49,881 nt of DNA, taken from assembly GCA_021154855.1 (NCBI GenBank), contig JAJKHV010000173.1:1-49881 (forward strand). Direction: 5' to 3'. The notes under the pieces were generated by a model that made no database searches, was not told where the DNA came from, and worked only from the letters and a program-made list of their open reading frames with translations. Every line of letters begins with the position of its first letter. Position 1 is the stretch's first letter. Positions 1,940 through 45,159 of this stretch are shown here, piece after piece. Position numbers and translations under genes: made by a program. This DNA comes from Solirubrobacterales bacterium. Its GTDB lineage: Bacteria > Actinomycetota > Thermoleophilia > Solirubrobacterales > 70-9.

Positions 1940-1963
1940 CCGGTCTTCTTGCCCTTGGGCTGT

Positions 1964-5395: not shown

Positions 5396-5454
5396 CTGAT
5401 TCGCCTCTTTTCTTCCGTTCTCGTCCCTCGAGGTTCGCTTGCCTGGCCGCCGCC

Positions 5455-8400
5455 TCATCGCGCCGCCCTCCGGTTGGCGCCGCCCCGCCGATGGTGGTGG
5501 CGCCGGCGCTTGACGCAGCGTTCCCTGCCGTGGCGCTCCTTGCCGTGGCGGACCACGCGGCGCCTGCCCTTGCCACAGTGGATCCGCGATTTGACGTTGC
5601 CGCCGCCGTTCAGCGAGGAGCTTGCGACCTGCGGTGGCGCCGGCGCTGCAGCCGGCGCCCCCTGGCAGACGTCGCCCGCGCAGGGCTCGGTGACCCTGCT
5701 CTCAGGCGGCGGGAAGCCGCCGTTCACGCGGGCGTCGTAGATGCGGATCGCGCTGCCGTTTTCGTCCTCCGGCAGCAGCTGCTCGCGGGTGGTGAAGAGG
5801 ACGTTGCTGCCGTCGCGCGAGGCGGCGAATAGCGAGCTTTCGGCACGGCCCTGGCCGGTCGAGATCAGGGCGACGCCTTTTCCGGCCTGCCACCTGTAGA
5901 CATCGCGCGCGTGGTTGACATCACGCGGGACCAGAGCTTCGGTCGACTCGAAGAAGACCGTGTTGCCGTCGTTGCTGAGGTTGTTAGGCGCAGTCCGGGT
6001 CATTGCTTCGTACCGCAGGAGCTGCGCTTCACCCGTTGCCGGGCCGCTGCCGGAGCCACAGGAGACGCACGTCAGCTGTTCGGTGTTGGCGTCGTAGCGG
6101 TAGGCCTCCTCGCAGAGTTCGAGTTCGCCGTCGTGCTCTTCGGTTTTCGTGCAGGTTTCCGGCGTCGCCTCGGTGTTGTCGAAGGAGCTGAGCTGCGTGG
6201 TCGCCTCGAACGTGAGGACGCTGCCGTCGGGGGTCGAGCGGGTGTGATTCATCCCGCGGCCATGACCGAGACCGAATTTGTATGGCCCGACCGCCCCCGT
6301 CCAGGTGATCAAGCCCGCTTCCCCGAGCCGGAAGCTCGTCGCGTCCTCGCCTGAGATTTCGGCGATCAGCGTGGTGCTGTCATCGGCGCGGTTCCAGACG
6401 TACAACTTTCCGCTCTTTTCACCCCCCGTTTCGAAGGTGCGGACGAAATAGACGTGGGAACCGTCCTGGGAGACGTTGACGAAGGCGGCGTCGCCCGTGT
6501 CCGTGATCGGTGTCGACTTACCGCTGTCTAGGTCGTAGGAGTAGAGGTCCGCTGGTAGTGCGTAGAACTGCTTAATGGGATCCGAGTACCTGTCCGCATA
6601 GAACAGGTGGCCGTTGTAGATGCCCGCATAGGTGAGGCTCTGCGCCGGCATCGAGGCCGAAGCCGAAGGCACGGCTCTGATGACGTAGTTCGCATGCGAG
6701 GATCCCCCGAGCGCCACCACCCCTCCGATAGCGTTCGTGGCGGTGAGGCGGCACTGCACCACCTTTGCGAGATCTTCTGTCGTGAGGGCGTAGCTGGAGT
6801 CGGTCGCGCCGGGGATTTCGGTCCCGTTTCGCAGCCACTGGTAGCTGAAGGTCGGGCGGCCGCTCCAGCTGCCTGCTTCACAGAAGAGGCTGCTGCCCAC
6901 CTGTGGGCTTCCCGAGACGCCTCCGCTGGAAAGCTGTTCGGGCGGTTCGGGTGCAAACGCAACAGCTGGGCCGTAGACCGAGACGTTGGCGCTGGCTTGT
7001 GCTGCGACGAAGACGTGCGTGTTGGAGCCCCTAATCGCGACGCCCCTGCCGTTCAGTTCGGTCGTCGAAACGCTACTCGCGCTTGCGGCGCCCGAGGCGT
7101 CAAACTCCGTGAGTTGGGATCCCGTGAGCGCGTAGACATGGCCGCTGGAGGGATCGACGGAGACGGTCCTGACCCCCGAGGAGATTGCGTATTTAATCGC
7201 GCCGGTTGAGCCGTCGAGCTTTGCGAGTTCGCCTTCTCCTCCACCGTAGGAGTCGACGAAGACGAAGCCGGCCGTAGGCCCTATGCCGGCGGCAAGAGTG
7301 CAGGCTTCGGGATAGCTGAAGTTGGCGCTGTTGTCTGCGGCGGTAGGCGGATTGGCGCTGGGCACGTACTTGTGCACGAAGCCGCCGCTGTCGCTGGCGT
7401 AGACGTCTCCGTTGGGGGCGACGGCGACGCCGCAGGCCCTTTCGGAGAAGTGAAGCAGCGATCCGTCGGCCCCAGCCCCTTCCTTGTATTCGTCGAGCTT
7501 GCCCAGGAAGGCGCCGCTGGAGGCGAAGATGTCGATGCGCGATTCTTCTTGGGTTCCCGTGGCTACGTAGATGTCCCCGTTGGTGGCCGTGCCCGAGTTG
7601 TCGACCGCAACCTGGACGGAGCTCCTGCGCCGTTCTTCCGCGCTCGGGAATCTGATCGCGCCTTCCGGCGTTTCGCTGATCACGTTCGTGCCAAGGGCCG
7701 AGAAGTTGTCTGGCGTGCCGTCGGGCTTAAAGCGGGAGATCGTGCCGGCTTCGGGGTCGACGACGAGCAGATCGCCGCTTGACTGGTCGACCGCAACGCT
7801 TGTCGCATAGGAGAAGCTCGGCTGTGCGGCGCTGCCGAAGGTTTCGAGGAAGGGGTGGGTTTGCGCCGTCAGTCCCGAGGAGAAGAACATGCGACTGGAG
7901 ATGGCTTGCGCGGCGCCGGCCGCGTTGGTGGCGTTGACGCGGCACTGCAGCGTCTTGCCTTCGTCTTCGGCGGCAACCGTGTATGTGTTCGCGGTTGCGC
8001 CAGCGATTTCCGCCCCGTCGCGCAGCCACTGGTAGACGAAGCTGGGGCTGCCACTCCAGGTGCCGCTGGAGCAGCTCAGTTCGTCCCCCGCTTCGAGTGC
8101 GTCGCCCGGATCGGTCGAGTTGGCGATCGCCGGACCGGAGGACGCCTGCGGGTATGGCAGCGTAATTGAAACGGAGTTGCTGTAGACGACGGCAGCCCCG
8201 TCGCCGTTGGAAACCGCTTTGCGGCATTGGAGCGAGTGGCCCACGTCGGCTTCGGGCGGGGTGTAGGTGTTGGCGCTCTGGCCGGCGATTTCGGTGCCAT
8301 CGCGGAACCATCGGAAGGCGTAGGTGGCGCCGGTGACGTGGAAGTCAGTGCCAATGCAGGTGAGTTGCGTACCCACCGCCGAGGCATTGCCCGACGGGCC

Positions 8401-9636
8401 TATAAGAGCTCCGTCGAGCTGACGGACTTCCGGCGTTTCGGTTTCCTGGTAGGGCTCGACCAAGCGAGTAATGCTTGTCTTGATGCTCTTGCCTTCGCCA
8501 TTGCTTGCGGTCACCTGGCACTGCACGACGGCTCCTGCGTCGCTCGCGGCCACCGTGTAGCCGGCGCTGGTCGCGCCGCCGATCGGCGAGCCGTCGCGCA
8601 GCCACTGGTACGAGATCGTCGCCGTCCCGGGTTCGCCTATGCAGGTCAGTTCTTTGCCGACGACGATGCCATCGATGCCATACGGCTGCACCGCTTCCTG
8701 AGTGTTTCCGTTGCGGCGGACGAAGATCGGGCTGCCGCCCCAGTCGGTCTGACCGGAGCCACCCAATTCAAACGCCACTTCGCTGCCGTCTTCGGTGGCG
8801 CCTAGCCAGCGCGCTTCTTCCGTCGACGGCTGGTTGCCGGGCAGGAGCGAGACGACCTTGGTGGGGCCGCCCGGGGTCCTGTCGTAGAGGGTGGCTCTAC
8901 CTTCTGGCGCTGCCAGCGGCTCGAGATGCTTCTTGGAGACGAAGAAAACGTGCGTAGCGTTTTCCGTGATCATCTTGCCGGCGTTGTATTCTTCAAGGCC
9001 GGGTTCGAAGCCTGGGTCGTCGCCAAGCGATCCTCGCGCCAGCGGTTCGAAGCCGCTTGGGGTGCGCAGCATCTCGACCTTGGATTGGCCGATCCAGGGC
9101 TGCCAGAGGCTCGGCGTAGGGCCTGCCGCCGCTGCAAAGAAGTAATCGTGGTCGGGCGAAGCCGCGCCGGGCCTGCTCACGTCGGCCACCTGATCGCCGC
9201 GCACCCCGACCAGCTCCGTTTCCCAGCCTTCAGCGGTCCGCTTGGCCCGATAACGGTCGATGTCCCCGGTCCCGGGGTAGCCGGTGAGCGAGCCGCTTTC
9301 AGTTTGGAACAGCACGTCAGCGTTGCTCGGGCTGATCAATTCGATGTCGCCCGGGCTCGGCATCTCGTTGATCGGCCCGTTGCTGAAGCCGATCGGAAGC
9401 CCCCCTGTGTAGCGGGGAGAGACGAGCTCGTAGGCACGGCAGTCCGGGAGTTTGGCCGAAGGCCCGGTACGGAAGACTTCGTTGGGGCAGGTGTCGACGG
9501 CGCTGGCGGGAGGCGCACCAATTCCCAGGAAAGCCACGAGCCCGAGCACGATGAGGCAAGCCAGGCCGAGGCGGGCCGGGCGACTATCGGCTGCCTGGAT
9601 CGGTGCCGCGGGTGATGCCTTCACGTGGCGTCTCAC
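5455..9636 (-). CDS. 1393-aa secreted multidomain protein: signal peptide, TolB/PD40-like regions, four Ig-like repeats, NHL-like six-blade region, CxGDxCQ and polybasic Cys tail
   Basis: GTG start at 9636 with AAGGAG 8 nt upstream. Signal peptide is LGLACLIVLGLVAFLGIGAPPASA. NHL-like blades include SGDLLVVD, NGDIYVA, NGDVYASD and SGHVYAL (aa ~600-890). The C-terminus is IYDARVNGGFPPPESRVTEPCAGDVCQG...CGKGRRRVVRHGKERHGRERCVKRRRHHHRRG. The stop overlaps the alternative ATG 5458 of the next ORF. Confidence 0.85.
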   Translation of the reverse strand: MRRHVKASPAAPIQAADSRPARLGLACLIVLGLVAFLGIGAPPASAVDTCPNEVFRTGPSAKLPDCRAYELVSPRYTGGLPIGFSNGPINEMPSPGDIELISPSNADVLFQTESGSLTGYPGTGDIDRYRAKRTAEGWETELVGVRGDQVADVSRPGAASPDHDYFFAAAAGPTPSLWQPWIGQSKVEMLRTPSGFEPLARGSLGDDPGFEPGLEEYNAGKMITENATHVFFVSKKHLEPLAAPEGRATLYDRTPGGPTKVVSLLPGNQPSTEEARWLGATEDGSEVAFELGGSGQTDWGGSPIFVRRNGNTQEAVQPYGIDGIVVGKELTCIGEPGTATISYQWLRDGSPIGGATSAGYTVAASDAGAVVQCQVTASNGEGKSIKTSITRLVEPYQETETPEVRQLDGALIGPSGNASAVGTQLTCIGTDFHVTGATYAFRWFRDGTEIAGQSANTYTPPEADVGHSLQCRKAVSNGDGAAVVYSNSVSITLPYPQASSGPAIANSTDPGDALEAGDELSCSSGTWSGSPSFVYQWLRDGAEIAGATANTYTVAAEDEGKTLQCRVNATNAAGAAQAISSRMFFSSGLTAQTHPFLETFGSAAQPSFSYATSVAVDQSSGDLLVVDPEAGTISRFKPDGTPDNFSALGTNVISETPEGAIRFPSAEERRRSSVQVAVDNSGTATNGDIYVATGTQEESRIDIFASSGAFLGKLDEYKEGAGADGSLLHFSERACGVAVAPNGDVYASDSGGFVHKYVPSANPPTAADNSANFSYPEACTLAAGIGPTAGFVFVDSYGGGEGELAKLDGSTGAIKYAISSGVRTVSVDPSSGHVYALTGSQLTEFDASGAASASSVSTTELNGRGVAIRGSNTHVFVAAQASANVSVYGPAVAFAPEPPEQLSSGGVSGSPQVGSSLFCEAGSWSGRPTFSYQWLRNGTEIPGATDSSYALTTEDLAKVVQCRLTATNAIGGVVALGGSSHANYVIRAVPSASASMPAQSLTYAGIYNGHLFYADRYSDPIKQFYALPADLYSYDLDSGKSTPITDTGDAAFVNVSQDGSHVYFVRTFETGGEKSGKLYVWNRADDSTTLIAEISGEDATSFRLGEAGLITWTGAVGPYKFGLGHGRGMNHTRSTPDGSVLTFEATTQLSSFDNTEATPETCTKTEEHDGELELCEEAYRYDANTEQLTCVSCGSGSGPATGEAQLLRYEAMTRTAPNNLSNDGNTVFFESTEALVPRDVNHARDVYRWQAGKGVALISTGQGRAESSLFAASRDGSNVLFTTREQLLPEDENGSAIRIYDARVNGGFPPPESRVTEPCAGDVCQGAPAAAPAPPQVASSSLNGGGNVKSRIHCGKGRRRVVRHGKERHGRERCVKRRRHHHRRGGANRRAAR
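6712..6915 (-). repeat. Fourth copy of the Ig-like repeat (SLFCEAGSWSGRPTFSYQWLRNGTEIPGATDSSYALTTEDLAKVVQCRLTATNAIG)
   Basis: It lies at aa ~908-975 of the 1393-aa protein. It shares the Cys/Trp/YQWLR.G/QC framework of the three upstream copies. Confidence 0.8.
7903..8661 (-). repeat. Three Ig-like coding repeats (C..G.W.G.P...YQWLRDG..I.GAT...Y.....D.G..LQC.V.A.N..G)
   Basis: The repeats lie at aa ~326-385, ~419-485 and ~512-578 of the 1393-aa protein. A 20-nt string ccgtcgcgcagccactggta is identical at 8591-8610 and 8015-8034 and encodes YQWLRDG. Confidence 0.8.
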
Positions 9637-9887
9637 GTAGGTCTCTCCTTGTCCCGTGAGCCCCTCTGCCCGCCGCTTCCCTTTGCGGCTTCCGCGAGGC
9701 TCGGTTATGTCCCTGTACTTGCCGTTCCCTGAATCGACTTGCGAGGTATGGCTAGTTCCGAGAAGTTGCTAGCTGTACCGGCAAGTTGCGCCAGTGAAGC
9801 ACCCCTCTGCAGGGTTGTCAAGGGAAGTTCCCAAAAGAAAATGGGCGTTCCCAGAGGCGTTCCCGAGAGGGATATGCGGGTACCGAA
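9637..9887. promoter_or_regulatory. Lower-GC leader/promoter region of the secreted-protein operon with direct GTTCC(C/G) repeats and GTACC motifs
   Basis: GTTCC(C/G) occurs at 9724, 9755, 9827, 9847 and 9859, all in the same orientation. The box GTTCCCAAAAGAAAATGGGC lies at 9827-9846. GTACC occurs at 9775 and GGTACC at 9879. An inverted repeat ACTTGCCG/CGGCAAGT flanks part of the region. Confidence 0.5.
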
Positions 9888-10547
9888 TTAGCCTGGCAGC
9901 GAACGGGCGAGGCGAGCCGCTTGCCCAGCCCCGAGGTAGGGCGCGAGGATGAACTCGGCGAAGTCGGGGAGGAGATCCTCGAGCTGCGCGGCTTCGCCGG
10001 CGGCGACCTTGCGCGAGGCGAGCATGACCAGGGCGCCGATTGTTGACTCCTCGGTGCTCGGCGGCAGCTCCCGGCCTCGCTCGCGCTCGCTTCGGCCCTG
10101 CTCTAGGAACGGGACTGCCTCGTGAACGGCCTCATGGAAGCGAGCGGCGACCGCGGGGCTGGCGCCCTGCGATTCGACCAGGCAGAGGCGGGCGAGCCCT
10201 GGCTCGGAGGCGAGGAACGCAAGCACCGCGCCGGAGGCGGCGATCGCCTGCCGCGGCCAATCGAAAACCGGCGCGATCGCCTCTGCCGCCAGCTCGCGGA
10301 TGTGACCGACGACGACCTCGAAGGCGGCCAGGAAGCACTCCTCCTTGCTCTCGAAATTCGCGTAGAAGACGCGGCGAGAGACCTTCGCCGCCTTGGTGAC
10401 GTGGGTGATCGTCACCGCCTGGTAGCCGTGCTCAGCGACCGCGGTGGCGAGGCCCGCGATCAAGCGCTCGCGCTGGTTGTGGGCGACCTGCTCGCGGCTG
10501 AAGCCGTGGCGGCCGGCGGGAAGGGGGCCGAGCTCTGCCTCTGCCAT
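9888..10547 (-). CDS. TetR/AcrR-family transcriptional regulator (array member 1)
   Basis: HTH region is ERLIAGLATAVAEHGYQAVTITHVTKAAKVSRRVFYANFESKEECFLAAF. Pre-HTH motif is PAGRHGFSRE. C-terminal motif is LLPDFAEFILAPYLG. Confidence 0.85.
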   Translation of the reverse strand: MAEAELGPLPAGRHGFSREQVAHNQRERLIAGLATAVAEHGYQAVTITHVTKAAKVSRRVFYANFESKEECFLAAFEVVVGHIRELAAEAIAPVFDWPRQAIAASGAVLAFLASEPGLARLCLVESQGASPAVAARFHEAVHEAVPFLEQGRSERERGRELPPSTEESTIGALVMLASRKVAAGEAAQLEDLLPDFAEFILAPYLGAGQAARLARSLPG

Positions 10548-10558
10548 GGGCTACCGGG

Positions 10559-11236
10559 TCAGGCCGACGCCGACTCGCGGCCGCCGGCCTCGCGCGCCGC
10601 CTCGTCCTCGCCGACGTAGGGACGCAGGAGGAACTCGAGGCTCTCCGGCAGCAAGGCCCGGAGCTTCGCCTCTTCCCCCGCGATCAGGCGCTGGTTGATC
10701 ACCCAGAGAACGCCGCCGGTCAGGGTGTCCTCGAGGCTGTCCGGCAGCTTGTCGCTGCGCGGGTTGAGCTCGCGGCCCGGACGCAGCAGCGGCGCAAAGC
10801 GCTTAAGCGCCGCCTCGTGACGCGCGGCCGCCTCCGGACCCGCGGTCGGCGCCTCGACCAGGCATGCCCTGGCAACGTCGGGGTGGGCGGCGACCTGTTC
10901 GAGCAGCGCCCCCAGGCCTGCCCCGACCTTGTCCGGCCAAGGCCCGTCTTCGCGGTCGTAGGCTTCCTCGACCACGTAGGCGGTGCGCTCGAGCGCCGCG
11001 TCGAGCAGGGCCAGGAAGGCCTCCTGCTTGTCGGCGTAGTGCTTGTAGAAGGTCGCGTAGCCAACTCGGGCACGGCGAATGATCTGCTCGATCGTCGTCT
11101 CGGCGAAGCCCTGCTCGGCGACCAAGCCCGCTGTTGCCTCGAGAATCCGGCGGCGCTGGTCGGCCGCCGACGCGGCGCGGCTGACCGGCTCGGGACCGGG
11201 CGGCTGCCGGGACGCCTTTCCAGGCAATGCGCGCAC
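10559..11236 (-). CDS. TetR/AcrR-family transcriptional regulator (array member 2)
   Basis: HTH region is QRRRILEATAGLVAEQGFAETTIEQIIRRARVGYATFYKHYADKQEAFLALL. C-terminal motif is LLPESLEFLLRPYVG. Confidence 0.85.
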   Translation of the reverse strand: MRALPGKASRQPPGPEPVSRAASAADQRRRILEATAGLVAEQGFAETTIEQIIRRARVGYATFYKHYADKQEAFLALLDAALERTAYVVEEAYDREDGPWPDKVGAGLGALLEQVAAHPDVARACLVEAPTAGPEAAARHEAALKRFAPLLRPGRELNPRSDKLPDSLEDTLTGGVLWVINQRLIAGEEAKLRALLPESLEFLLRPYVGEDEAAREAGGRESASA

Positions 11237-11322
11237 GGAGTTAGGATAGCGCGCGTTCCCATTGGTACGAAGGCAGTATATGAAGTGGTGCGAGTTCCCA
11301 AAAATGGGCTAAGGTACCCCGA
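11237..11322. promoter_or_regulatory. Divergent TetR promoter/operator region
   Basis: GTTCCCATTGGTAC lies at 11255-11268. GTTCCCAAAAATGGGC lies at 11294-11309. GGTACC lies at 11313-11318. The GTTCCCA-A-run-TGGGC box also occurs at 9827-9846. Confidence 0.5.
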
Positions 11323-12012
11323 GTGAAAGCGTCACCGACACTGCGAGCAGTGAGGTCATGGGATGAGGCCATCTCGCAGCGTGCGGCGGATGAGGGAGCG
11401 CTGGAAGCGATGCTGCTGAGCGTCGGCGCGAAGGGATACGACAAGGCGACGGTGCAGGAGGTGCTCGAGCGCAGCGGCATCTCCCGCGATCGCTTCCAGC
11501 GTGGCTTTGGCGGCAAGGAGGCCTGCTTCGCGCAGGCTTACGAGATGGCGGCAGATCGACTCTGCGCGGAAGTGCTCGAGGCGGGCCGCGAGGCCGAGAG
11601 CTGGCGGGCGGGCTTCCGCGCCGCCCTCGCCACGCTGCTGCGCACGGTCGCCGAGCAGCCGTTGCTGGCCAAGGCGCTGCTGATCGAGGTGCGCGCCGCC
11701 CGCGGGCAGGCCTGGGTCAAGCACCAGCAGCTGACCGAACGCTTCGCCCGCGCGGTCGACTCCGCTCGGCGCCAGCCAGGGGCGAGATTGACGACGACGA
11801 CGCTCACCGCCCAGTTCGTCGTCGGCGCGATCGAGGAATCGGTCGCAGCCGAGATCGGCGCCGGCCGTGCTGCAACGGTCGAGCGGCTGCTTCCGGACCT
11901 TGCCCACCTGGCCGCGCTCAACTACTTCGGCGAGGACGAGGCCTGGCTCGAGCTGCGCTCGCCGGACCTCGCCACGGCCGAGACCGTCGCGCCGGGCGAG
12001 CCGATCGAGTAA
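11323..12012 (+). CDS. TetR/AcrR-family transcriptional regulator (array member 3)
   Basis: GTG start. HTH region is LEAMLLSVGAKGYDKATVQEVLERSGISRDRFQRGFGGKEACFAQAY. C-terminal motif is LLPDLAHLAALNYFG. Confidence 0.8.
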   Translation: MKASPTLRAVRSWDEAISQRAADEGALEAMLLSVGAKGYDKATVQEVLERSGISRDRFQRGFGGKEACFAQAYEMAADRLCAEVLEAGREAESWRAGFRAALATLLRTVAEQPLLAKALLIEVRAARGQAWVKHQQLTERFARAVDSARRQPGARLTTTTLTAQFVVGAIEESVAAEIGAGRAATVERLLPDLAHLAALNYFGEDEAWLELRSPDLATAETVAPGEPIE

Positions 12013-12015
12013 GCG

Positions 12016-13380
12016 TCAGGCCGGCTCCTGGGCCAGCTTCGCCGCCTCGGCGCTGCCGACGTATGGAGTCAGCGTGAACTCGACCAGATCCGGCAGCAGC
12101 TCCTCGAGCTCTTCGGCTTTGCCGGCGATGATGCGGCGTGAGATCAGCGAGACCATGCCGCCGACGAGGGCCTCCTCGGTGGTCGGCGAAAGGCGGGCGA
12201 GAACCTCGGGTGGGCGACCCTCGCGGCCGCTCTGGAAGTAGGGGACGAAACTCTGGATCGCGGCGTCGTAGCGCTCGACCACAACCGGGCCGGCGACCAG
12301 CGCCTCGACCATGCAGAGGCGCGCGAGGTTCGGCTCGGCGGCGAGAAACTCGAGCATCGCGCCGATCCCGGCTTTGACCGCATGCGGCCAGTCCTCGGCG
12401 CCCTCGAAGGCGGCGGAGACGCGACCGCGCAGCTCCTCCATAACGGTGTCGTAGGCGGCGACGAAGCACTCGTCCTTGCTCGAGAAGTGCTCGTAGAAGG
12501 TGCGGCGCGAAACGGCCGCATGGCGGGTGATGTGGGCAATCGTCGTTCCCGAATAGCCGTTTTCGGCAATCGCCTCGGCGAGGCCGGCGATCAACCGCTC
12601 GCGCTGGTTGTGGACGACGAACTCGCGCGGCAGGCCGTGACGACCGGGCGGGAGGCGTGCCAGCTCGGGCGGGTAATCCTCGGCAGGGACGTTGGTCCCG
12701 CCGGATTTACCGGGGGAAGATTTTTTAGCCACATCCCGACGATATCGCGCTGGCGGGTCGAAGCCACGCGCCAGCTCGGCCAGTCCCGCCTCGATACCCA
12801 GGTAGGGCATCACCGCGGCCGATAGCAATTGGGGAACGAGGGCGGGCAGCTCGTCGGCCTCACCGCGTACCACCTTGGCGTAGACCTGGCCGTAGGCGGA
12901 GCCGGCCAGCGCCTCGGCGGTGGTGTGCGGAACCGACTCGGGGTCGTCCATCTCGTTGCGACCGGCATCGATCAGCGAGGCGATCACCCGCATCGTCATG
13001 TCGCGGCGGGCGCGGGCGGCGTCGCCGGCGGCCAGCACCTCGACCGCGAAGGAGGCCCGGCTGGGAGCGCTGCGCAAGTTCTCGACGATCTCGCAGGCGA
13101 CGGCACGCAGGCGGTCAGGCCATTCTTCCTGGCTGTTGAAGGCCTCGACCATCTCCCTCATGCAGCCCTCGTTGATCTCCTGCCAGGCGGTCAGGAAGCA
13201 GTCGTACTTGCTGCGGAAGTGACGATCGAAGGCGGGTCGGTCGAGGCCGGCCCGGTCCAGAATCAACTCGATCGTGGTCTCGGCATAGCCGCGCTCGGCC
13301 GCGATCTCGATCAGGGCCTCGACAATGCGCTCGCGCTCGGGACTGGCCGCGCGCTCGCGGGTCTCCAGGTCAAGGGGCAC
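12016..13380 (-). CDS. Tandem (double) TetR-family regulator: two complete TetR modules in one 454-aa chain (array members 4a and 4b)
   Basis: Module 1 (aa 1-~205) has ERIVEALIEIAAERGYAETTIELILDRAGLDRPAFDRHFRSKYDCFLTAW ... LVPQLLSAAVMPYLG. The linker is ~37 aa (FDPPARYRRDVAKKSSPGKSGGTNVPAEDYPPELA). Module 2 has LPPGRHGLPREFVVHNQRERLIAGLAEAIAENGYSGTTIAHITRHAAVSRRTFYEHFSSKDECFVAAY ... LLPDLVEFTLTPYVG. There is no stop between the modules. Confidence 0.8.
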   Translation of the reverse strand: MPLDLETRERAASPERERIVEALIEIAAERGYAETTIELILDRAGLDRPAFDRHFRSKYDCFLTAWQEINEGCMREMVEAFNSQEEWPDRLRAVACEIVENLRSAPSRASFAVEVLAAGDAARARRDMTMRVIASLIDAGRNEMDDPESVPHTTAEALAGSAYGQVYAKVVRGEADELPALVPQLLSAAVMPYLGIEAGLAELARGFDPPARYRRDVAKKSSPGKSGGTNVPAEDYPPELARLPPGRHGLPREFVVHNQRERLIAGLAEAIAENGYSGTTIAHITRHAAVSRRTFYEHFSSKDECFVAAYDTVMEELRGRVSAAFEGAEDWPHAVKAGIGAMLEFLAAEPNLARLCMVEALVAGPVVVERYDAAIQSFVPYFQSGREGRPPEVLARLSPTTEEALVGGMVSLISRRIIAGKAEELEELLPDLVEFTLTPYVGSAEAAKLAQEPA

Positions 13381-13413
13381 TAGGTCATGGGACCGCCGAT
13401 CCCTGCCCCTGGC

Positions 13414-14130
13414 TCAACCCGCAGTGGGTGTTGACGGTTGCTCGGCGGCGATCCGCTTGGCTGCCTCGGCGCCGAGGTAAGGAGTGAGGGAGAACTCGAC
13501 CAGCTCTGCCAGCAGGCTCTCGATCTGCTCCGCCTGTCCCATGATGATGCGCTGGTAAAGGATCCAGAAGATGCCGCCGACGATCGTCTCCTCGAGCGTC
13601 CCCGGCAGCTCCTCCCCCTTCGAAGAGACCTTGCGGCCCATGCGGAAGAGCGGCACGAAGGCCTGGATCGAGCGCTCGTAGCGGTCGACCGCGGCCGGAC
13701 CGGCCGAGAGCGCCTCGACGATGCAGGTACGGGCCAGCGCCGGCTCGGTGGCTACGTAGTGCAGGAAGGCCGCGAGGCCGGCGTTGACCCGGGCCGGCCA
13801 GGTATCGACCTTGCTGGCGGCGTCGACGACGCGGCGCAGCGCCTCCTTGACCGCGAACTCCGAGGCGGCGAGGAAGCAGTCCTCCTTGGAGGAGAAATTC
13901 TCGTAGAAGGTGTTGCGGGCGATGCCGGCGCGGCGGACGATGTCGGCAACCGTGACGGCCCGGTATCCCTTCTCGACCGTCTCCTCCGCAAGTGCCGCGA
14001 TGATGCGGGCTCGCTGGTGCTGAGCGATGAACTCGCGGGGCAGTGGATGGCGCCCCGGCGGCATTCTGGTCGCTTGGGGAGCACGGTCGGGCACGAACGC
14101 CAGAGTACCCCTATGGGTATCTGATTCCAA
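13414..14130 (-). CDS. TetR/AcrR-family transcriptional regulator (array member 5); start uncertain (TTG 14130 or ATG 14064)
   Basis: Sequence reads MPPGRHPLPREFIAQHQRARIIAALAEETVEKGYRAVTVADIVRRAGIARNTFYENFSSKEDCFLAAS ... LLAELVEFSLTPYLG. The sister genes start about 10-15 aa before the GRHG motif, which favours ATG 14064. Confidence 0.8.
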   Translation of the reverse strand: MESDTHRGTLAFVPDRAPQATRMPPGRHPLPREFIAQHQRARIIAALAEETVEKGYRAVTVADIVRRAGIARNTFYENFSSKEDCFLAASEFAVKEALRRVVDAASKVDTWPARVNAGLAAFLHYVATEPALARTCIVEALSAGPAAVDRYERSIQAFVPLFRMGRKVSSKGEELPGTLEETIVGGIFWILYQRIIMGQAEQIESLLAELVEFSLTPYLGAEAAKRIAAEQPSTPTAG

Positions 14131-14186
14131 GCTGGACGTATTGACCAGATACCGCTACAGTACCGGACTCCAGACAACCCGTTCCC
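14106..14186. promoter_or_regulatory. Operator-like palindromes in the divergent TetR5/TetR6 control region
   Basis: TACCC-CTAT-GGGTA lies at 14106-14119. The 8-bp inverted repeat GGTATCTG (14116-14123) / CAGATACC (14146-14153) follows. GTACC lies at 14160 and GTTCCC at 14181. GAGGAAAGG precedes ATG 14211. Confidence 0.45.
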
Positions 14187-14210
14187 TTGATCGAGTAGAG
14201 GAAAGGTCAG

Positions 14211-14903
14211 ATGGGAAAGCAGGCCGCACCCGAGGTCCAGGCAGGGGCTGAAGGGACCGCCGCAACGGGGAACGTTTCCCCACAAGCTCCCGCACTCAGA
14301 CTGGTGAGTTCTCCGAAGCGTCAGAAGATCCTCGAGGGAATGCTCGAGGTGGTCGGCACGAACGGCTATGACGCCGCATCCGTGCGTATGGTGCTCGATC
14401 TGACCGGCCTCTACCGGCAGGCCTTCTACGACGAGTTCGCCGACAAGGACGCCTGTTACCTGGAGGCTTTCGACTTCGGCGTGACGCGCCTGGAAGCCGT
14501 GGCGCGTGCGGCCGCGGCGGCTGAAGAGAGCTGGCAGGGTCAGCTTCGCGCTGGCCTGGCAGCCGTCCTGGCAGTGCTCGACGCTGAACCCGAGGTGGGC
14601 CGCGCCCTGATCGTCGAGGTGCACGCGGCGGGGCAGGAGGCGCTTCAAAGACGCTCCCAGGCGATGAAACGAATCACCGATTTCATCGATTCGGCCAGGC
14701 ATGCCTCCAATGGGGCCGGATCGCCACCGCCGATCGCCGCCGAGGGGATCGTTGCCGGTATGCATGCGGTGCTCCACGCCCGGCTGGCAACAGGCGAGGA
14801 AGGCGGCTTTCGGAAGCTCTTGCCGGAGTTCATGTACTTCGCCGTGCTGCCCTATTTCGGTGCCGGGATGGCCAGCGCCGAGATGCAAGCCGCCAAGGCC
14901 TGA
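14211..14903 (+). CDS. TetR/AcrR-family transcriptional regulator (array member 6)
   Basis: HTH region is SPKRQKILEGMLEVVGTNGYDAASVRMVLDLTGLYRQAFYDEFADKDACYLEAF. C-terminal motif is LLPEFMYFAVLPYFG. Confidence 0.85.
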   Translation: MGKQAAPEVQAGAEGTAATGNVSPQAPALRLVSSPKRQKILEGMLEVVGTNGYDAASVRMVLDLTGLYRQAFYDEFADKDACYLEAFDFGVTRLEAVARAAAAAEESWQGQLRAGLAAVLAVLDAEPEVGRALIVEVHAAGQEALQRRSQAMKRITDFIDSARHASNGAGSPPPIAAEGIVAGMHAVLHARLATGEEGGFRKLLPEFMYFAVLPYFGAGMASAEMQAAKA

Positions 14904-14944
14904 GCGGTTGGACAGGGCGCGGGTACTGCCCTACGCTGAGTTGC

Positions 14945-15625
14945 GTGGATTCGCCACCTACTTCGAATCCAGATCGAGCCCTCAGCGGGCGCCACGGCTT
15001 GCCGCGGGCCTACCTGGTCCGCTCCCAGCGGGAGCGGCTGCTGGAGGCGATGCTGCGAGTCGCCGCGGCAAAGGGCTACGAGGCAACCACGGTGACCGAT
15101 GTGATCGAGGTGGCAGGAGTCTCCCGGGAGGCCTTCGAGGAGATGTTCGGCGACAAGCCGACCTGCTTCCTCGAGGCCTACGACGCGGTCTTCGACGTAC
15201 TCGTCGCCCACGTCACCGCAGCCTTTGAGTCAGCGGCGAGCGAGCCCTGGCCGGAGCGGATCGCCGCCGGCCTGGATGCGCTGGTCGGATTGCTCGCCAC
15301 CGAGGCCGACATCGCCCGTCTCTCGATGGTCGAGGTCACCGCTGCAGGCGACGATGCCCGAGCGCGCTACCGCGCCGCGCTGGCGCGCTTCACGCCCTTT
15401 CTCGAGGAAGGCCGGGAGTACTCCAATCAGGGTGAGGAGCTGCCGGCGGATACCGCGCGCTTCGCGATCGGCGGCGCCACCTCGATGATCTTCGATGAGA
15501 TCCGTGCTGGTCGAGGCCCGGAACTGCAGCGGATCCTGCCCGACCTGGTCTTCGCCGTGCTGATGCCTTACCTCGGCCCCGAAGAGGCTGAGAGCGAGAT
15601 GCGCCGCGTCACCCGAGGTACATAG
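14945..15625 (+). CDS. TetR/AcrR-family transcriptional regulator (array member 7)
   Basis: GTG start. Sequence reads LSGRHGLPRAYLVRSQRERLLEAMLRVAAAKGYEATTVTDVIEVAGVSREAFEEMFGDKPTCFLEAY ... ILPDLVFAVLMPYLG. Confidence 0.85.
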   Translation: MDSPPTSNPDRALSGRHGLPRAYLVRSQRERLLEAMLRVAAAKGYEATTVTDVIEVAGVSREAFEEMFGDKPTCFLEAYDAVFDVLVAHVTAAFESAASEPWPERIAAGLDALVGLLATEADIARLSMVEVTAAGDDARARYRAALARFTPFLEEGREYSNQGEELPADTARFAIGGATSMIFDEIRAGRGPELQRILPDLVFAVLMPYLGPEEAESEMRRVTRGT

Positions 15626-15642
15626 AGCCGGGAGTCCGGCTC
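15625..15642. terminator. Compact hairpin between convergent genes (possible bidirectional terminator)
   Basis: GAGCCGG-GAGT-CCGGCTC is a 7-bp stem with a 4-nt loop. It touches both stop codons (TAG 15623-15625 and the minus-strand TGA 15641-15643). There is no U-tract. Confidence 0.35.
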
Positions 15643-16393
15643 AAACGCCTTTGCCGTGACGGCCGGCGCCATCAGCAAAAAGCTTTGCTCCTTCGACCGC
15701 TACGTGAAGAGTCTCGCGGCCGAGCTCGTGCTCCAGGGCGATGCCGTCGGCCAGGGGCAGGCCGAAGCCCTCGATCGCGGCGCGGCGGTCGGCGAGCATC
15801 GTCTCTTGCGGAAATGCAGCGATCCGCTCCGCCAATTCCAACGCCCGTTCCAGGTGCGTCCCGGGCTCGACGACCTCGTTGACGAGGCCGATCCGCAGCG
15901 CCTCCTCCGCCTCGACCGGGCGGCCGGTGAGGATCAGGTCAAGCGCCCGACCCATGCCGAGGATGCGGGGCAGGCGCTGGGTGCCACCGTCGACCAGCGG
16001 CACGCCCCAGCGACGCTCGAAAAGGCCAAAGGTCGACCCCGTGGTGGCAATCCGAAGGTCGCACCAGAGCGCCAGCTCGACGCCACCCGCCAGGCACCAG
16101 CCGTCGATCGCGGCGATTGCCGGCTTGCCCGGAGTCAGGCGGGTGGGCCCCATCGGACCGTGCGGGTGATCGACGTCGAGATCCATCGCCTTGAGGTCGG
16201 CGCCCGCGCAGAAGGCCTGACCGCCGGCGCCGGTGAGGACGAGCACGCGGGCGGCCTCGTCGGCTTCGAAGTCCTTCAACCCCTGCCGGAATGCCTCCGC
16301 GGCGGCGGCGTCGATCGCGTTGCGCCGCTCGGGCCGGTCGATCGTCAGCACACTCGCGGCGCCGACCCGCTCGTAGCGAAGCTCCCCGCTCAT
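15641..16393 (-). CDS. Enoyl-CoA hydratase/isomerase (crotonase) family protein
   Basis: Sequence reads MSGELRYERVGAASVLTIDRPERRNAIDAAAAEAFRQGLKDFEADEAARVLVLTGAGGQAFCAGADLKAM. I chose the internal ATG 16393, which has GAGGA 7 nt upstream. The track ORF extension to 16627 is Arg/Pro/Ala-rich and not crotonase-like. Confidence 0.85.
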   Translation of the reverse strand: MSGELRYERVGAASVLTIDRPERRNAIDAAAAEAFRQGLKDFEADEAARVLVLTGAGGQAFCAGADLKAMDLDVDHPHGPMGPTRLTPGKPAIAAIDGWCLAGGVELALWCDLRIATTGSTFGLFERRWGVPLVDGGTQRLPRILGMGRALDLILTGRPVEAEEALRIGLVNEVVEPGTHLERALELAERIAAFPQETMLADRRAAIEGFGLPLADGIALEHELGRETLHVAVEGAKLFADGAGRHGKGV

Positions 16394-16872
16394 CGTTCGA
16401 TCCTCGCACAGGCTGGCCGCAACATCGCTGGGAAGATGGGGAGCGGGCGGGCTAGTCGCGGCGGCCATCCGGGTCTCGCGGCGACGCCCAGCTCCCGGGT
16501 GCGCCCCGGCACGCGCGGCGGTCGAGGGCAGGTGCTCGACGGCCGGACGAGACGCTAGGCGCCTCCCCGGACGCCATGACGCTGACGTCATGTTTCGTCT
16601 CGCTATCCAAGACAAACGCGACGTCACCTTTTAGAGCACGAAAAAGCGACCGGTGGTGGGGCTCGGTTGCCTGCCGCGTGCGTAGCCTTCGCACACTGAA
16701 GCTCGTCGCGCCACCTCCGAGACGTGCTCCGCTTGGCTTCCGCGGACCGCGTCTCTCCCAGTCGCACGATCAACTTAGCGCGAGCGCCTTCGCGGTGGAA
16801 GGGGGGTGACGTAAACGTTCCCGCAAACTGCATGGTTTCCCGCCTCGCGCCTGGGGCGGCTAGATTGCCTTT

Positions 16873-17808: not shown

Positions 17809-18591
17809 ATGGCTAACCGCAGGGACGAAGAGAGGGAGCGACTCCGCCAGGCCAGGCAGGAACGCGAGAAGAAACAGTCGGGTTCCGAGCGGCGGCGCTT
17901 GCTGATCGGCTACGGCGTGGCCGGTCTCGTCGGCCTTGCCGTGCTCGCCGGGATCGTCGCGATCGTCGTCTCCGCCGCCAACAAGAACGACAGCGGGGAA
18001 TCCCACATCAACCAATCCTCGGGCTCGACCAACGGCGTCCAACCCGACGAACGCTCCGGAACGACGCCGCCGTCGCCGAAGGTGACCAACCTCGACGAGG
18101 CGGCCAAGAAGGCGGGCTGCGACCTGCGCCTCAAGCTTCCCGAAGAGGGCCACAATCACATTCCGCCGACCGCGGCGACGCCCGAATACAAAACCAATCC
18201 GCCCACGTCCGGCAACCACGTCGAACCTCCCTACCAGCAGGCTGACGGCGCCTACAAGGAAATGCCTCAGGAAATCGACTTCGTTCACTCGATGGAGCAC
18301 GGCCGGCTGGAGATCCAATACAGCCCGGGCCTCTCCGAAAGCGCGCAGCTGGAACTGATCGGCCTCTACGACACGATGTACGGGGCCACCTTGCTCTTCC
18401 CGAACGAAAACATGCCTTATGAAGTGGCCGCCACCACCTGGCGCAACCTGATCGGCTGCAACGAATACAAGGGCGCGATCACCCTCGACGCGATCCGCGA
18501 CTTCGGCGCAAAGACCTGGGGCCACGGACGCGAGCCCGTCGCGGGCTTCGCCTTCACCGGCCCGACGCCGGAAGAACCGACGATCAAGTAG
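17809..18591 (+). CDS. Membrane-anchored DUF3105-like protein
   Basis: It has a basic N-terminus and one TM segment (LLIGYGVAGLVGLAVLAGIVAIVV). The stretch YKTNPPTSGNHVEPPYQQADGAYKEMPQEIDFVHSMEHGRLEIQYSP matches my recollection of the actinobacterial DUF3105 signature. This needs an HMM check. Confidence 0.6.
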   Translation: MANRRDEERERLRQARQEREKKQSGSERRRLLIGYGVAGLVGLAVLAGIVAIVVSAANKNDSGESHINQSSGSTNGVQPDERSGTTPPSPKVTNLDEAAKKAGCDLRLKLPEEGHNHIPPTAATPEYKTNPPTSGNHVEPPYQQADGAYKEMPQEIDFVHSMEHGRLEIQYSPGLSESAQLELIGLYDTMYGATLLFPNENMPYEVAATTWRNLIGCNEYKGAITLDAIRDFGAKTWGHGREPVAGFAFTGPTPEEPTIK

Positions 18592-19567
18592 CGCGGTAAG
18601 CGGGGAAGAAGCCGCCGGCCTCGCGGCCCCCGGCAAGACGCAAATACGCCTTTGTGTCGCAGACGATCTCCGAGGTGGACCAGGGCAGCTCGCGGTTGGC
18701 GAAGCCGCGCTTGAACTCCTCCAGCCGGTCACCGGCCGAGATCCCGCCGCCGAGATTGAGCGGCAAACCCTGCTCGGCGGAGAGCTCGACCAGGGAGGCA
18801 ACGACGTTCTTCATCGGCGAGTCGCGCAGATGGGAATCGATGCTGCCGCTCAGGTAGTAGTGGAGGTAGTCATCGCTGCGAACCGCGATCGAGGCCGCGG
18901 CGATCTCGCCGTTGGGAGCTTCGGCGAGGGCGAGCCACGCCTGGCTCGATTCGAGGATTCGATCGAAGTAGGCGGCCGAGAAGAAATAGCGCTCGCCGGC
19001 GCCGGTACGGCGCATCGTCTCCTCGTAGGCGGCGAGAAAGCCGCGGCGCTGGGCTGCGGTCGTCTCGGGGCCTGAAAGCAACTGCAGCTCATAGCCGCGG
19101 CGCAGGTTCTTATTGATCTGGTTGCGATCGCTGGAGCGGCTCTTGGACGGCAGCCTGGGGTCGGCGATCTGGACCACGTTGCGCTCGCTGGCGCCGCTGA
19201 GAGGAGGAGCGCTGAGGGTGTGGCGGATGAAGACGGTGACGAGCCCGGTCGGAGAAAAGTCGACGGCCGCCGGCTCGATTGAGGTCCCGCCAGGCGCTGC
19301 AACCCCCGGATACCCATAGGGCGAGATCGCGTCGAGCTCAGCCCCGGCCGTACGGAACGTGGGTTCGGAGTCGACATTTCCTCTCGTCGGGGAGGGAATT
19401 TCGCGGACGATCAGAGGCGCCAGCAGCTCCACGTCGTCGGTCGCTATGCGCAGGGTGTGGGTGACTCCTTCGGCATCGAAGAACGGGCGCGAGCGGAAGA
19501 ACTCGTCGCTGACCGCCGCTTCGCCGCGATCCTCGATCAACTCGGCCTTGGCGAGCGGCTTGCTCAC
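18584..19567 (-). CDS. FemAB-like / Acetyltransf_6 GNAT-fold protein (aminoacyl- or acyl-transferase of a glycan locus)
   Basis: Sequence reads SSDRNQINKNLRRGYELQLLSG...FLAAYEETMRRTGAGERYFFSAAYFDRI...LHYYLSGSIDSHLRDSPMKNVV...EEFKRGFAN. The family assignment is from memory of FemAB/BioF2-like proteins. Confidence 0.5.
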   Translation of the reverse strand: MSKPLAKAELIEDRGEAAVSDEFFRSRPFFDAEGVTHTLRIATDDVELLAPLIVREIPSPTRGNVDSEPTFRTAGAELDAISPYGYPGVAAPGGTSIEPAAVDFSPTGLVTVFIRHTLSAPPLSGASERNVVQIADPRLPSKSRSSDRNQINKNLRRGYELQLLSGPETTAAQRRGFLAAYEETMRRTGAGERYFFSAAYFDRILESSQAWLALAEAPNGEIAAASIAVRSDDYLHYYLSGSIDSHLRDSPMKNVVASLVELSAEQGLPLNLGGGISAGDRLEEFKRGFANRELPWSTSEIVCDTKAYLRLAGGREAGGFFPAYRAT

Positions 19568-20175
19568 GAGAGGAGGTCGGCGGCGGCGACGCGGAACTCC
19601 TCGGGAAGAACGCCCCAGACCTCGCAGTCGTCGGCCGGCGCGCCATCGCGACGCAGGTGAGCACGCATCGTCCCCTCGTGCTTCCAGCCGAGGCTGGTCA
19701 CGGTCTTCTTGGCTATCTCGTTGCGAGCGGGGATCCGCCCGTAGACCCGGTGGGCGCCGAACTCGTCGAAGGCCTTGGCGATCGTCAGCGCCTCAGCGCG
19801 GCGGCCGACGCCCTTGCCCCGCACGTCGTCGCCGATCAACGCTCCAAGCTCGGGCGCAGTCTGGCGAAAGAGCCCGTAGAGGGCGGTGAAGCCGACCGGC
19901 TCCGCATAGTCCTCGACCACGATCGCGTACTTACGGTCCTCGCCCGAATCGTCCATCGCCCGCCCGACCCAGGCCTCCGCTTCAGCAAGCGAGAACCCAT
20001 CCCGCTGCTCCATCAGCGAAGCGGTCGCGGCCGGGTTGTTGAACCAGCGGTGCACCGCGGCGGCATCGCCCGGCTCGAAGCTGCGCAGGCTTACGTGGGG
20101 AGGCCGATCGTTCACGGCGAAAACCCTACGGCCTCCGCTCTCCCCTTGGGCGTAACGCTTATCCGTGAATCCCAT
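19564..20175 (-). CDS. GNAT-family N-acetyltransferase (RimJ/RimL-like)
   Basis: Sequence reads FEPGDAAAVHRWFNNP...YAIVVEDYAEPVGFTALYGL...GALIGDDVRGKGVGRRAEALTIAKAFDEFGAHRVYGRIPARNEIAKKTVTSLGWKHEG. It overlaps the next gene by 4 bp. Confidence 0.8.
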   Translation of the reverse strand: MGFTDKRYAQGESGGRRVFAVNDRPPHVSLRSFEPGDAAAVHRWFNNPAATASLMEQRDGFSLAEAEAWVGRAMDDSGEDRKYAIVVEDYAEPVGFTALYGLFRQTAPELGALIGDDVRGKGVGRRAEALTIAKAFDEFGAHRVYGRIPARNEIAKKTVTSLGWKHEGTMRAHLRRDGAPADDCEVWGVLPEEFRVAAADLLS

Positions 20176-20252
20176 GAAGGGCGTTACGCCGGTGCCATTG
20201 ACCGGGCGTAACGCTTTATCCCCCTATTACGTGGACAACGCGTTGCACCCGG

Positions 20253-20816: not shown

Positions 20817-20924
20817 CAGCTCACTTCCGATGACCCGTGCGGCCAAGCAGATCAAGTGCGCAGGGAGCGTGGCGTGCTCTGCACGCGAGCGACCGAGGAC
20901 GCCGATATGCGCCGGCCACATGTG

Positions 20925-22049: not shown

Positions 22050-22099
22050 CGGGCGATTATCGGCTTCCGTTGCGCTTTATGCCCGCATGGGGTCGCTGA

Positions 22100-22119
22100 G
22101 CCGCACGGGAACGTGCGGC
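22100..22119 (-). terminator. Intercistronic hairpin (8-bp stem, tetraloop) just after the GT4 stop
   Basis: Plus-strand sequence is GCCGCACG-GGAA-CGTGCGGC. It lies 7 nt downstream of the minus-strand stop at 22126. There is no U-tract, so it may act as an mRNA stabiliser rather than a terminator. Confidence 0.3.
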
Positions 22120-22125
22120 AGACCG

Positions 22126-23232: not shown

Positions 23233-23255
23233 CTGGCGCGTGGCCCCCTAACCGC

Positions 23256-34693: not shown

Positions 34694-34778
34694 CCGCCGC
34701 GGACGCGGGAGGGTTGGCACCGTGATCGCCGGTGGTCATGTGCGCGCGCCCGGGAGCGGAGGAGGCGGCGCCTGATCC

Positions 34779-37612: not shown

Positions 37613-37686
37613 GCGCCACCTTGGGATCGACGGGCCGACAACATGACCCTGGCTCTTGTGTGAGGCCCATCGGCGGCTGTTCTATC

Positions 37687-39144: not shown

Positions 39145-39145
39145 C

Positions 39146-42123: not shown

Positions 42124-42130
42124 GGGCGGC

Positions 42131-45148: not shown

Positions 45149-45159
45149 GGGCTGGCGCG

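Follow-up and report, generated by a model that had tools for sequence, protein, structure and literature searches.

The locus described in the present study raises the question of why seven genes for TetR family regulators should stand side by side, with no other gene among them, next to an operon for secreted proteins. These genes occupy positions 9888-15625 of a 49,881-nucleotide stretch of DNA (hereafter, the window) from a Solirubrobacterales bacterium (assembly GCA_021154855.1, contig JAJKHV010000173.1), and are called T1 to T7 here in order of position (Table 1). No one-component sensors are more common in actinobacteria than TetR regulators, which have usually been studied as pairs of one repressor and one target. 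A first-pass annotation had suggested that the array is a regulatory hub with the neighboring operon as its candidate target. The answer that we favor, tentatively and with a little less than even confidence, is that the array may consist of TetR sensors that regulate themselves and one another and are also tied to the operon for the secreted proteins.

The 5.7-kb array was found to contain seven TetR/AcrR genes and no others, as had been claimed from its open reading frames (ORFs), and TetR coding sequence accounts for approximately 95% of it. All seven ORFs were present where they had been called, with the start of T5 probably being GTG 14094 rather than TTG 14130, which appears to belong to the -35 element of a promoter. 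Since T4 encodes a double protein, the array comprises eight modules. The Pfam model TetR_N (PF00440) was matched by each of the seven ORFs, and twice by T4; seven of the eight modules scored above 24 bits. T3 scored 23.6 bits against the 24-bit cut-off; however, it is homologous over its full length to the other modules (E 1e-13 to 1e-31). Both halves of T4 showed the all-helical, two-domain fold of approximately 200 residues in an AlphaFold2 model, and the remaining modules are linked to this fold through homology. The array proteins are TetR/AcrR family regulators, for which no Pfam C-terminal domain model gave a match and no NCBIfam model came near its cut-off.

After T4 had been divided at its linker into T4N and T4C, the eight modules could be aligned from end to end (alignment A1), and all 28 pairs gave significant matches over 171-218 residues (BLASTP E 1e-13 to 1e-75, identity 25-51%). 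The similarity of unrelated TetR proteins is limited to the first ~50 residues, and because homology in the array reaches well past the shared helix-turn-helix, the modules are regarded as one subfamily, which is in accordance with the earlier claim and with the tree described below. Among the three motifs on which that claim was based, the LLPDL...PY.G motif near the C terminus was found in all eight modules and the K..CF motif after the helix-turn-helix in most. The third, a basic stretch before the helix-turn-helix that resembles P.GRHGLPRE (the GRHG arm), had been assigned to five modules; it was clear in T1, T4C, T5, and T7, and degenerate in the fifth, T2. A profile built from the eight modules detected no further member of the subfamily elsewhere in the window. 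The orientations of the genes and the gaps of 11-41 nt fit the four transcription units in both orientations that had been proposed (T2-T1, T3, T5-T4, and T6-T7), a number that is to be read as a minimum, with T2 and T1 or T6 and T7 being split in some relatives.

The conservation of this arrangement was assessed in a scan with T4 alone as the query and one genome per species, which returned 181 related stretches; the best 80 were analyzed by placing the proteins of the window on them and by searching them with the module profile. These 80 loci derive almost entirely from uncultured Solirubrobacterales, several of them from chromosome-labelled assemblies of 2.4-3.0 Mb. In protein databases, T4 is represented by more than 120 clusters at ≥88% identity, the named ones of which come from metagenome-assembled genomes of Solirubrobacterales; a look-up of the exact T4 sequence returned no record. 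The full set from T7 to T1 was present in unchanged order and orientation in 66 of the 80 loci, and the array is, thus, conserved among relatives. Fifty-eight of these 66 loci carry exactly eight intact modules, and the other eight are frameshifted or clipped by a contig end. Nine loci carry T7-T6-T5-T4 only, with unrelated genes, often a major facilitator superfamily transporter, filling at least the next 3 kb, and the remaining five are cut by contig ends. Since T4-T7 have been retained in those nine loci although T1-T3 and the secreted genes are absent, the T4-T7 core has a role of its own.

Each module formed a separate orthogroup with 100% bootstrap support, and the ratio of nonsynonymous to synonymous substitution (dN/dS) against four relatives was 0.03-0.30 for all eight modules, with T5 and T4C showing the lowest values. 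The separation of the orthogroups together with purifying selection indicates that the duplications are older than the radiation of the clade and that each copy has been kept for its own function. The helix-turn-helix segments were 83-99% conserved inside each of the seven orthogroups examined and differed between orthogroups. The array is old and selectively maintained, and is typical of an uncultured soil clade of Solirubrobacterales with genomes of ~2.4-3.0 Mb.

Regarding the origin of the array, a neighbor-joining tree separated armless modules (T3, T6, and T4N) from arm-type modules (T1, T2, T4C, T5, and T7) with 73% support, and within these groups T1 paired with T4C (91%) and T3 with T6 (89.5%). 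The order and orientation of T1 and T2 on the minus strand facing T3 on the plus strand mirror those of T4 and T5 facing T6. An ancestral three-gene unit, in which two co-oriented arm-type genes faced an armless one, was probably duplicated such that T1-T2 facing T3 corresponds to T4C-T5 facing T6; the armless T4N would then have been fused onto T4C to give a double repressor with the architecture of Mce3R (see below), and T7 added. The tree and the repeated gene order partly support this model.

The neighboring operon on the minus strand encodes three large secreted proteins, S2, S1, and S0, and lies behind a control cassette situated between T1 and the first secreted gene. A profile of the cassette found one copy in each positive locus, downstream of T1 in the 46 loci in which its position was checked. 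Of the 66 loci with T1-T3, 62 had the cassette; when only loci with at least 3 kb of flanking sequence were considered, it was present in 52 of 54 such loci versus none of the nine that carry T4-T7 only. A lasting linkage of the array to the secreted-protein genes, which the earlier annotation had named as a check on its proposal, is supported by this co-occurrence and also by a more distant relative (L083), in which the array is flanked by NHL-repeat proteins. The secreted proteins themselves are only 27-64% identical across relatives, and the cassette is far more conserved than the genes behind it. The first gene behind its leader differs by species, encoding a protein that starts with MRRHVK in the window and in many loci, and with MFSTL or other sequences elsewhere (e.g., L001, L020, L026, and L049). 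Therefore, the cassette looks like a conserved expression unit with an exchangeable, fast-evolving cargo.

The leader of the cassette contains a hairpin, all five predicted stem pairs of which show compensatory changes in 2-12 of 34 sequences and the loop of which is conserved (CA.CTTCTRGGAA). The leader also shows an inner hairpin (GCCGC/GCGGC) and a long-range pairing (GAGCC/GGCTC) that is invariant (alignments A3 and A4; at least 34 species). A search of Rfam with the leader gave no match, and the leader may represent a new cis-regulatory RNA. In addition, a palindrome of the form ACCCC-N5-GGGGT in the promoter spacer of the operon was found in many species, partly with compensatory changes, and was lost in others.

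The control regions of the array were compared in alignments of orthologous intergenic regions from 66 loci for the region between T3 and T2 and from 79 loci for that between T6 and T5. The conserved blocks in both regions fit compact actinobacterial promoters, and, from their conservation and spacing, we infer the four promoters proposed in Table 1. The hexamer GGGAAC, mostly followed by G, has two copies in the T3-T2 region, one in the T6 leader, and four ahead of the secreted operon, with a further copy in the gap between the enoyl-CoA hydratase gene beyond T7 and an MTHFR gene. All eight of these copies are on the minus strand, and the array-associated intergenic DNA (~660 nt) that holds them accounts for eight of the 28 copies in the window. 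GGGAAC was the most frequent hexamer across the three control regions (453 nt), with seven copies on one strand; first-order Markov simulations gave P values of 0.024 for this count alone and of 0.003 when its presence in all three regions was also required. In the alignments, the boxes are invariant or nearly so (34 species for the operon cassette). The earlier proposal of the neighboring operon as a shared target gains partial support from these conserved GGGAAC(G) boxes, which are common to the promoters of the array and the region upstream of the operon. The box in the T6-T5 region survives in loci without T1-T3, and its reader is, therefore, most likely one of T4-T7.

Other interpretations of these sequences were considered. 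The possibility of GGGAAC being the -35 element of an extracytoplasmic function (ECF) sigma factor was rejected on inspection of the sequence; CGT or GTT was not consistently found 16-18 nt downstream, and one such reading removes the conserved start of T2. The spacing and half-sites do not fit direct-repeat boxes of the GlnR or PhoP type. GGTACC, examined as a second shared box, overlaps the -10 element of T3 in the T3-T2 region and is not conserved as such. The sequence TTCG(G)TACC, common to the T2 promoter and the operon cassette, is within chance expectations for an 8-mer.

A sensor cluster tied to the operon would work as follows. The DNA-reading helix is conserved separately in each module, and the ligand pocket presumably also differs from one module to the next; the array may accordingly be a set of distinct sensors of small molecules. 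The array proteins would bind to the T3-T2 and T6-T5 divergent regions, such that the cluster would regulate itself and its members one another, and one or more of them would act on the cassette downstream of T1 that drives the secreted NHL/Ig proteins. The GGGAAC(G) boxes are the best candidates for the operators involved. Those in the promoter spacers of T2 and T3 and in the T6 leader occupy positions that would suit repression, while the position of the direct repeats upstream of the TTGACA of the operon would suit activation or repression. The asymmetric double protein T4 would be a natural candidate for the reader of a non-palindromic site.

Several observations weigh against this reading. 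A generic scan for promoters and terminators did not call the proposed promoters, which are weak matches, and position 2 of the -10 element assigned to the operon (TGCTTCACT) is not the canonical A. TetR homodimers do not usually have direct repeats as operators, and GGGAAC is a short sequence that was searched for after the motif had been noticed and that an unrelated protein could read. Since T3, T2, T1, and the cassette are contiguous, the joint loss of T1-T3 and the cassette may have been a single deletion; their co-presence, which may reflect contiguity and few deletion events, is, thus, supportive and not proof. Furthermore, T4-T7 persist without secreted genes in the nine loci described above, the pairing of T2 with T5 that is expected from the duplication model received a bootstrap value of only 22.5%, and the likeness of the modules to FadR and FasR, presented below, is structural only, with no NCBIfam equivalog cut-off being approached.

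Regarding T4, the structure was predicted by AlphaFold2 using an alignment of close orthologues and approximately 120 other doubles of the subfamily. The model was confident (pLDDT 86.8, pTM 0.82) and consists of two all-helical halves with pLDDT mostly above 90, separated by a disordered linker (pLDDT <50), which holds most of the arm of T4C; the arm lies directly ahead of a helix that begins at residue 252. With two TetR_N matches, two full-length matches to the module profile, and two folded halves, T4 has the two complete modules of a double TetR family regulator (TFR). T4N and T4C are 33% identical, and because they fall in different subgroups, T4N with T3 and T6 and T4C with T1, T4 is regarded as a fusion of distinct genes, not a recent internal duplication. 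Double TFRs are widespread in actinomycetes, with 204 having been predicted in 2013 (PMC3711444), and the only one with a solved structure, Mce3R, is asymmetric and binds a non-palindromic operator (PMC11667970).

The best full-length match to the T4 model was Mce3R (Rv1963c) from Mycobacterium tuberculosis (PDB 9b7y; Foldseek E 1.8e-7, 456 aligned columns). The TM-scores were 0.52/0.59 with 15% identity. The root-mean-square deviation of 10 Å does not show the packing of the halves to be alike in the two proteins; the pTM of 0.82 suggests that the halves of T4 have a defined arrangement. A sequence profile matched Mce3R only over residues 13-102, i.e., the N-terminal ~90 residues, which does not amount to orthology. 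Unlike Mce3R, T4 sits among six single paralogues; the likeness lies in two modules of different sub-clades joined by a flexible linker. Judging from the model, T4 is a double repressor of the Mce3R type by architecture, not an orthologue of Mce3R.

These features of T4 bear on a further explanation, in which armless modules pair with arm-type modules (T6 with T7, T3 with T2 or T1, and T4N with T4C by fusion) to form asymmetric dimers that read non-palindromic operators and provide combinatorial control. T4 does fuse a module of the armless clade to one of the arm clade, T6 and T7 follow one another in a like order 41 nt apart, and the candidate boxes are direct repeats, not palindromes. Mce3R, the solved double TetR, is an asymmetric unit on a non-palindromic site (PMC11667970). 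Most of the best 150 representatives of the subfamily are doubles of ~440 aa and several are triples of ~660 aa, which is a hint in the style of a Rosetta stone, and among doubles with an arm in one half only, the arm was in the C-terminal half in 26 cases and in the N-terminal half in four. The interfaces could also be compatible, with LLPDL..PY.G being shared by all eight modules. However, five arm-type modules and three armless ones do not allow a one-to-one pairing, unrelated genes part T6 from T7 and T2 from T1 in some relatives, and literature searches did not find a natural TetR heterodimer encoded by separate genes. A mirror-tree analysis gave partial correlations of 0.27 for T4N-T4C, 0.23 for T6-T7, and -0.20 for T2-T1, none of which rose above the fused control, and cannot rank partners because the fused control T4N-T4C was itself not distinguishable. 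Considering both sides, heterodimerization among the array modules is plausible, and we regard pairing as the general explanation of the array as unlikely. Less likely still is the complete form of this idea, a heteromeric "TetR code" in which asymmetric dimers would read the GGGAAC repeats and several ligand inputs would be integrated on one cassette with an NHL/Ig cargo swapped between species. If true, no natural network of heterodimerizing TetR proteins would precede it, and these abundant soil actinobacteria, which are uncultured, would have a control hub dedicated to a hypervariable repertoire of surface or secreted proteins.

The array may instead be a historical accident, in which tandem duplicates serve as independent single-target sensors of distant genes and their clustering reflects shared descent only. 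TetR genes duplicate readily, and the present subfamily is large, comprising 3260 clusters (50% identity) at E≤1e-30 in a profile search; other members stand singly in other genomes, the recognition helices differ between the modules, and each gene tolerates separation from its neighbor by inserted genes. In relatives, three junctions, T7/T6, T4/T3, and T2/T1, are hot spots for such insertions (Table 1), which include AAA ATPases and toxin-antitoxin (PIN/antitoxin) pairs as well as genes for a nucleotide-sugar dehydrogenase and a transposase-like protein; a gene of ~1.35 kb lies between T6 and T7 in 16 relatives. No insertion was found in the T6-T5 or T3-T2 divergent region among the relatives compared. 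Against an accident stands the fact that order and orientation are fixed in 66 loci despite these repeated insertions and a synonymous divergence from the window of 0.3-0.9 in the four pairs measured. In both divergent regions, moreover, the two partners are TetR genes separated by gaps of less than 120 bp, where the regulation of the neighbor is expected (PMC3511530), the control regions have conserved boxes in common, and arrays of the same subfamily beside NHL proteins recur in more distant lineages. We consider an accident of descent to be improbable on this evidence.

A TetR regulator is generally expected to control its divergent neighbor across a short intergenic region (PMC3511530, PMC4482099). 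The divergent gaps in the array are similarly short (86 and ~80-116 bp); the difference from the classical layout of one regulator and one target is that both divergent neighbors are TetR genes, that seven of them are contiguous, and that the block is conserved in dozens of species. Literature searches retrieved no description of such a TetR array. The regulators are of a known kind, while their arrangement is new and resembles a regulatory hub of unusual density. The array stands out in four ways: eight paralogous modules frozen in order in dozens of species with small genomes, TetR genes facing TetR genes, a natural two-module fusion, and an adjoining cassette for fast-evolving secreted proteins. 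The array, thus, offers a compact natural system for investigations on the division of labor among duplicated regulators, heteromers of TetR paralogues, and the asymmetric reading of DNA by a double TetR. Members of the clade abound in soil metagenomes, and none has been cultured; the seven genes and three DNA regions could be synthesized for in vitro work.

The occurrence of the subfamily outside the clade was examined at seven sites; two of these, L081 and L082, are one and the same locus, which leaves six distinct contexts. Clusters of three to eight members were present in three of these six, and the earlier statement that TetR genes normally occur singly is, therefore, too strong for this subfamily. 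In the more distant relative mentioned above (L083; T4 orthologue 70% identical), the array is rearranged and comprises eight TetR genes plus a fragment, with large NHL-repeat proteins on both sides. In L086, three members stand in a row beside a small NHL ORF, and on another actinobacterial contig (L084, 7771-13889), five members are grouped within 6 kb next to an mce operon (MlaD-type) for lipid uptake; one of these (8432-9055) has a degenerate helix-turn-helix and no Pfam match. Single members were found in L081/L082, L085, and L087. Multi-module architectures appear to be common in the subfamily. Several triple fusions of full-length TetR modules (P0124, P0125, P0159, P0201, and P0202; ~660-780 aa) were observed, as was a 597-aa protein (P0132) with six tandem copies of the arm and helix-turn-helix without ligand-binding domains. 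The typing of both halves by best hit in ~135 double or triple representatives was uninformative, with most halves matching the slow-evolving T4C or T5.

Among single modules, the best fold matches were Bacillus halodurans FadR (TM 0.80), B. subtilis FadR, and M. tuberculosis FasR. Across FadR (5gp9, 3whb; PMC5397183) and FasR (6o6n-p), the TM-scores of the module were 0.74-0.80 with identities of 15-24%, in agreement with the sequence profile, and five of the seven array genes had FasR as their highest-scoring NCBIfam model. FadR and FasR are encoded by single genes, whereas the array modules are encoded by a gene cluster. An enoyl-CoA hydratase gene, i.e., a fatty-acid gene, adjoins T7 in all loci, which fits this likeness, and the modeled folds hint at acyl-CoA-like lipids as ligands. 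T4-T7 may, thus, be FadR/FasR-like sensors of acyl-CoA that control the hydratase and other fatty-acid genes, with the secreted neighbors being incidental; the GGGAAC box upstream of the hydratase, the persistence of T4-T7 where secreted genes are absent, and the cluster beside the mce operon are in line with this. We consider this to be the least probable of the three rival explanations, with the hydratase being convergent and not divergent with T7, its upstream region resembling a structured RNA leader and thereby suggesting a different control, the bit scores lying far below every equivalog cut-off (76 versus 330 bits for the best FasR match, and 48 versus 200 bits for FadR), and the similarity of fold being generic among TetR proteins.

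A further likeness concerns the basic arm before the helix-turn-helix, which four to five array modules carry. The flexible N-terminal arm of SimR contacts the minor groove of DNA (PMC3241653), and that of the array modules may also contact DNA by analogy; its sequence is unrelated to that of SimR.

The individual genes differ in their rates of evolution. T5 is the most conserved protein of the array (84-99% identity across loci, dN/dS 0.03-0.07), and T4 is present in all 80 loci at 78-97% identity. T3 (58-89%, 0.18-0.27) and T6 (59-91%, 0.20-0.30) are the two fastest-evolving modules. The values were 61-95% and 0.10-0.15 for T7 and 71-95% and 0.07-0.25 for T2, and orthologues of T1 were found in 66 of the 80 loci (69-88%, 0.19-0.24). 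T2 and T1 are probably co-transcribed, and the GTG start of T2 looks leaderless.

Table 1. Positions of the genes, proposed control elements, and insertion sites of the TetR array and its surroundings (window coordinates; locus numbers for insertions in relatives).
Feature	Position	Strand	Remarks
Secreted-protein operon	1-9636	-	Three large secreted proteins; candidate target of the array
S0	1-1939	-	Clipped by the window edge
S1	1964-5458	-	
S2	5455-9636	-	Signal peptide; Ig-like and NHL repeats
Conserved control cassette	9637-9887	-	251 bp between T1 and the first secreted gene
Cassette, TTCGGTACC box	9887-9879	-	
Cassette, three direct GGGAAC repeats	9864-9859, 9852-9847, 9832-9827	-	12 and 20 bp apart
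Cassette, TTGACA	9821-9816	-	Invariant (CTTGACAA)
Cassette, TGCTTCACT	9801-9793	-	17 nt after TTGACA; atypical -10
Cassette, leader (~150 nt)	9637-9790	-	Hairpin 9774-9751; GGGAAC 9729-9724; ribosome-binding site 9650-9642
T1	9888-10547	-	Single arm-type module (LPAGRHGFSRE); closest paralogue T4C (51% identity)
T2	10559-11236	-	Single module, degenerate arm; 11 nt upstream of T1
T3-T2 divergent control region	11237-11322		Alignment of 66 loci
Proposed T2 promoter	TTCGTA 11271-11266, TATCCT 11248-11243	-	17-nt spacer, then 6 nt to GTG; conservation and spacing
Proposed T3 -10	TAAGGT 11310-11315	+	7 nt to GTG; conservation and spacing
GGGAAC boxes, T3-T2	11255-11260 and 11294-11299	-	Inside the two promoter spacers
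T3	11323-12012	+	Single armless module; closest paralogue T6
T4	12016-13380	-	Double TetR, 454 aa; T4N 1-~212, disordered linker 213-247, T4C ~248-454
T5	13414-14130 as called	-	Single arm-type module; likely start GTG 14094
T6-T5 divergent control region	14095-14210		Proposed back-to-back promoters; alignment of 79 loci
Proposed T5 promoter	TTGGAA 14130-14125, TACTCT 14107-14102	-	17-nt spacer, then 7 nt to GTG 14094; conservation and spacing
Proposed T6 promoter	TGGACG 14133-14138, TACAGT 14156-14161	+	17-nt spacer; leader with ribosome-binding site 14199-14206
GGGAAC box, T6-T5	14181-14186	-	In the T6 leader
T6	14211-14903	+	Single armless module
T7	14945-15625	+	Single arm-type module (SGRHGLPRA); 41 nt downstream of T6
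Enoyl-CoA hydratase gene	15641-16393	-	Convergent with T7; adjoins T7 in all loci
Insertions at T4/T3	L003, L023, L034, L050, L052, L053, L060		
Insertions at T2/T1	L039, L060, L070, L076		
Insertions at T7/T6	L012, L067, L076		

The hydratase gene starts at ATG 16393, and the ORF call to 16627 overextends it by ~78 codons. It is a possible further target of the array, with a GGGAAC box at 16817-16822 in its long upstream region. Just upstream of the gene (~16400-16560, minus strand), a conserved non-coding block was observed with a covarying stem, which is formed by GTCGCCGCG/CGCCGCGAC in the window, GTTGTCGG/CCGACAAC in L002, and GTTGTTGG/CCAACAAC in L037 and L055; this block may serve the hydratase gene as a riboswitch or leader. 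Another conserved stretch of ~150 nt in the same 480-bp intergenic region (~16650-16800, minus strand) extends from near GCGCTAAGTT to GGTCGC and a T run, looks like a small RNA with a terminator, and is preceded by a conserved TTTGCGGGAACGT box at 16817. A search of Rfam with the upstream region gave no match to either block, and none even at E≤10 for the first.

Beyond the hydratase, Pfam matches identified a DUF3105 membrane protein (17809-18591), followed by two GNAT/FemAB-like acetyltransferases, a sugar transferase, and a family-2 glycosyltransferase (18584-22049). Judging from sequence features only, the stretch up to 25766 seems to hold more glycosyltransferase-like genes together with a flippase-like gene, and 18584-25766 would be a cluster for cell-envelope polysaccharides a few kb from the array. 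At 33179-49056, the order of the ORFs and their N-terminal sequences, which were the only basis for these assignments, point to what appears to be the conserved actinobacterial cluster for cell division and signaling, with two Ser/Thr kinases, a penicillin-binding protein, a RodA/FtsW-like protein, a PP2C phosphatase, and FHA-domain proteins. The ORF at 46549-49056 would be gyrA; if so, the replication origin is probably no more than a few tens of kb away from the array.

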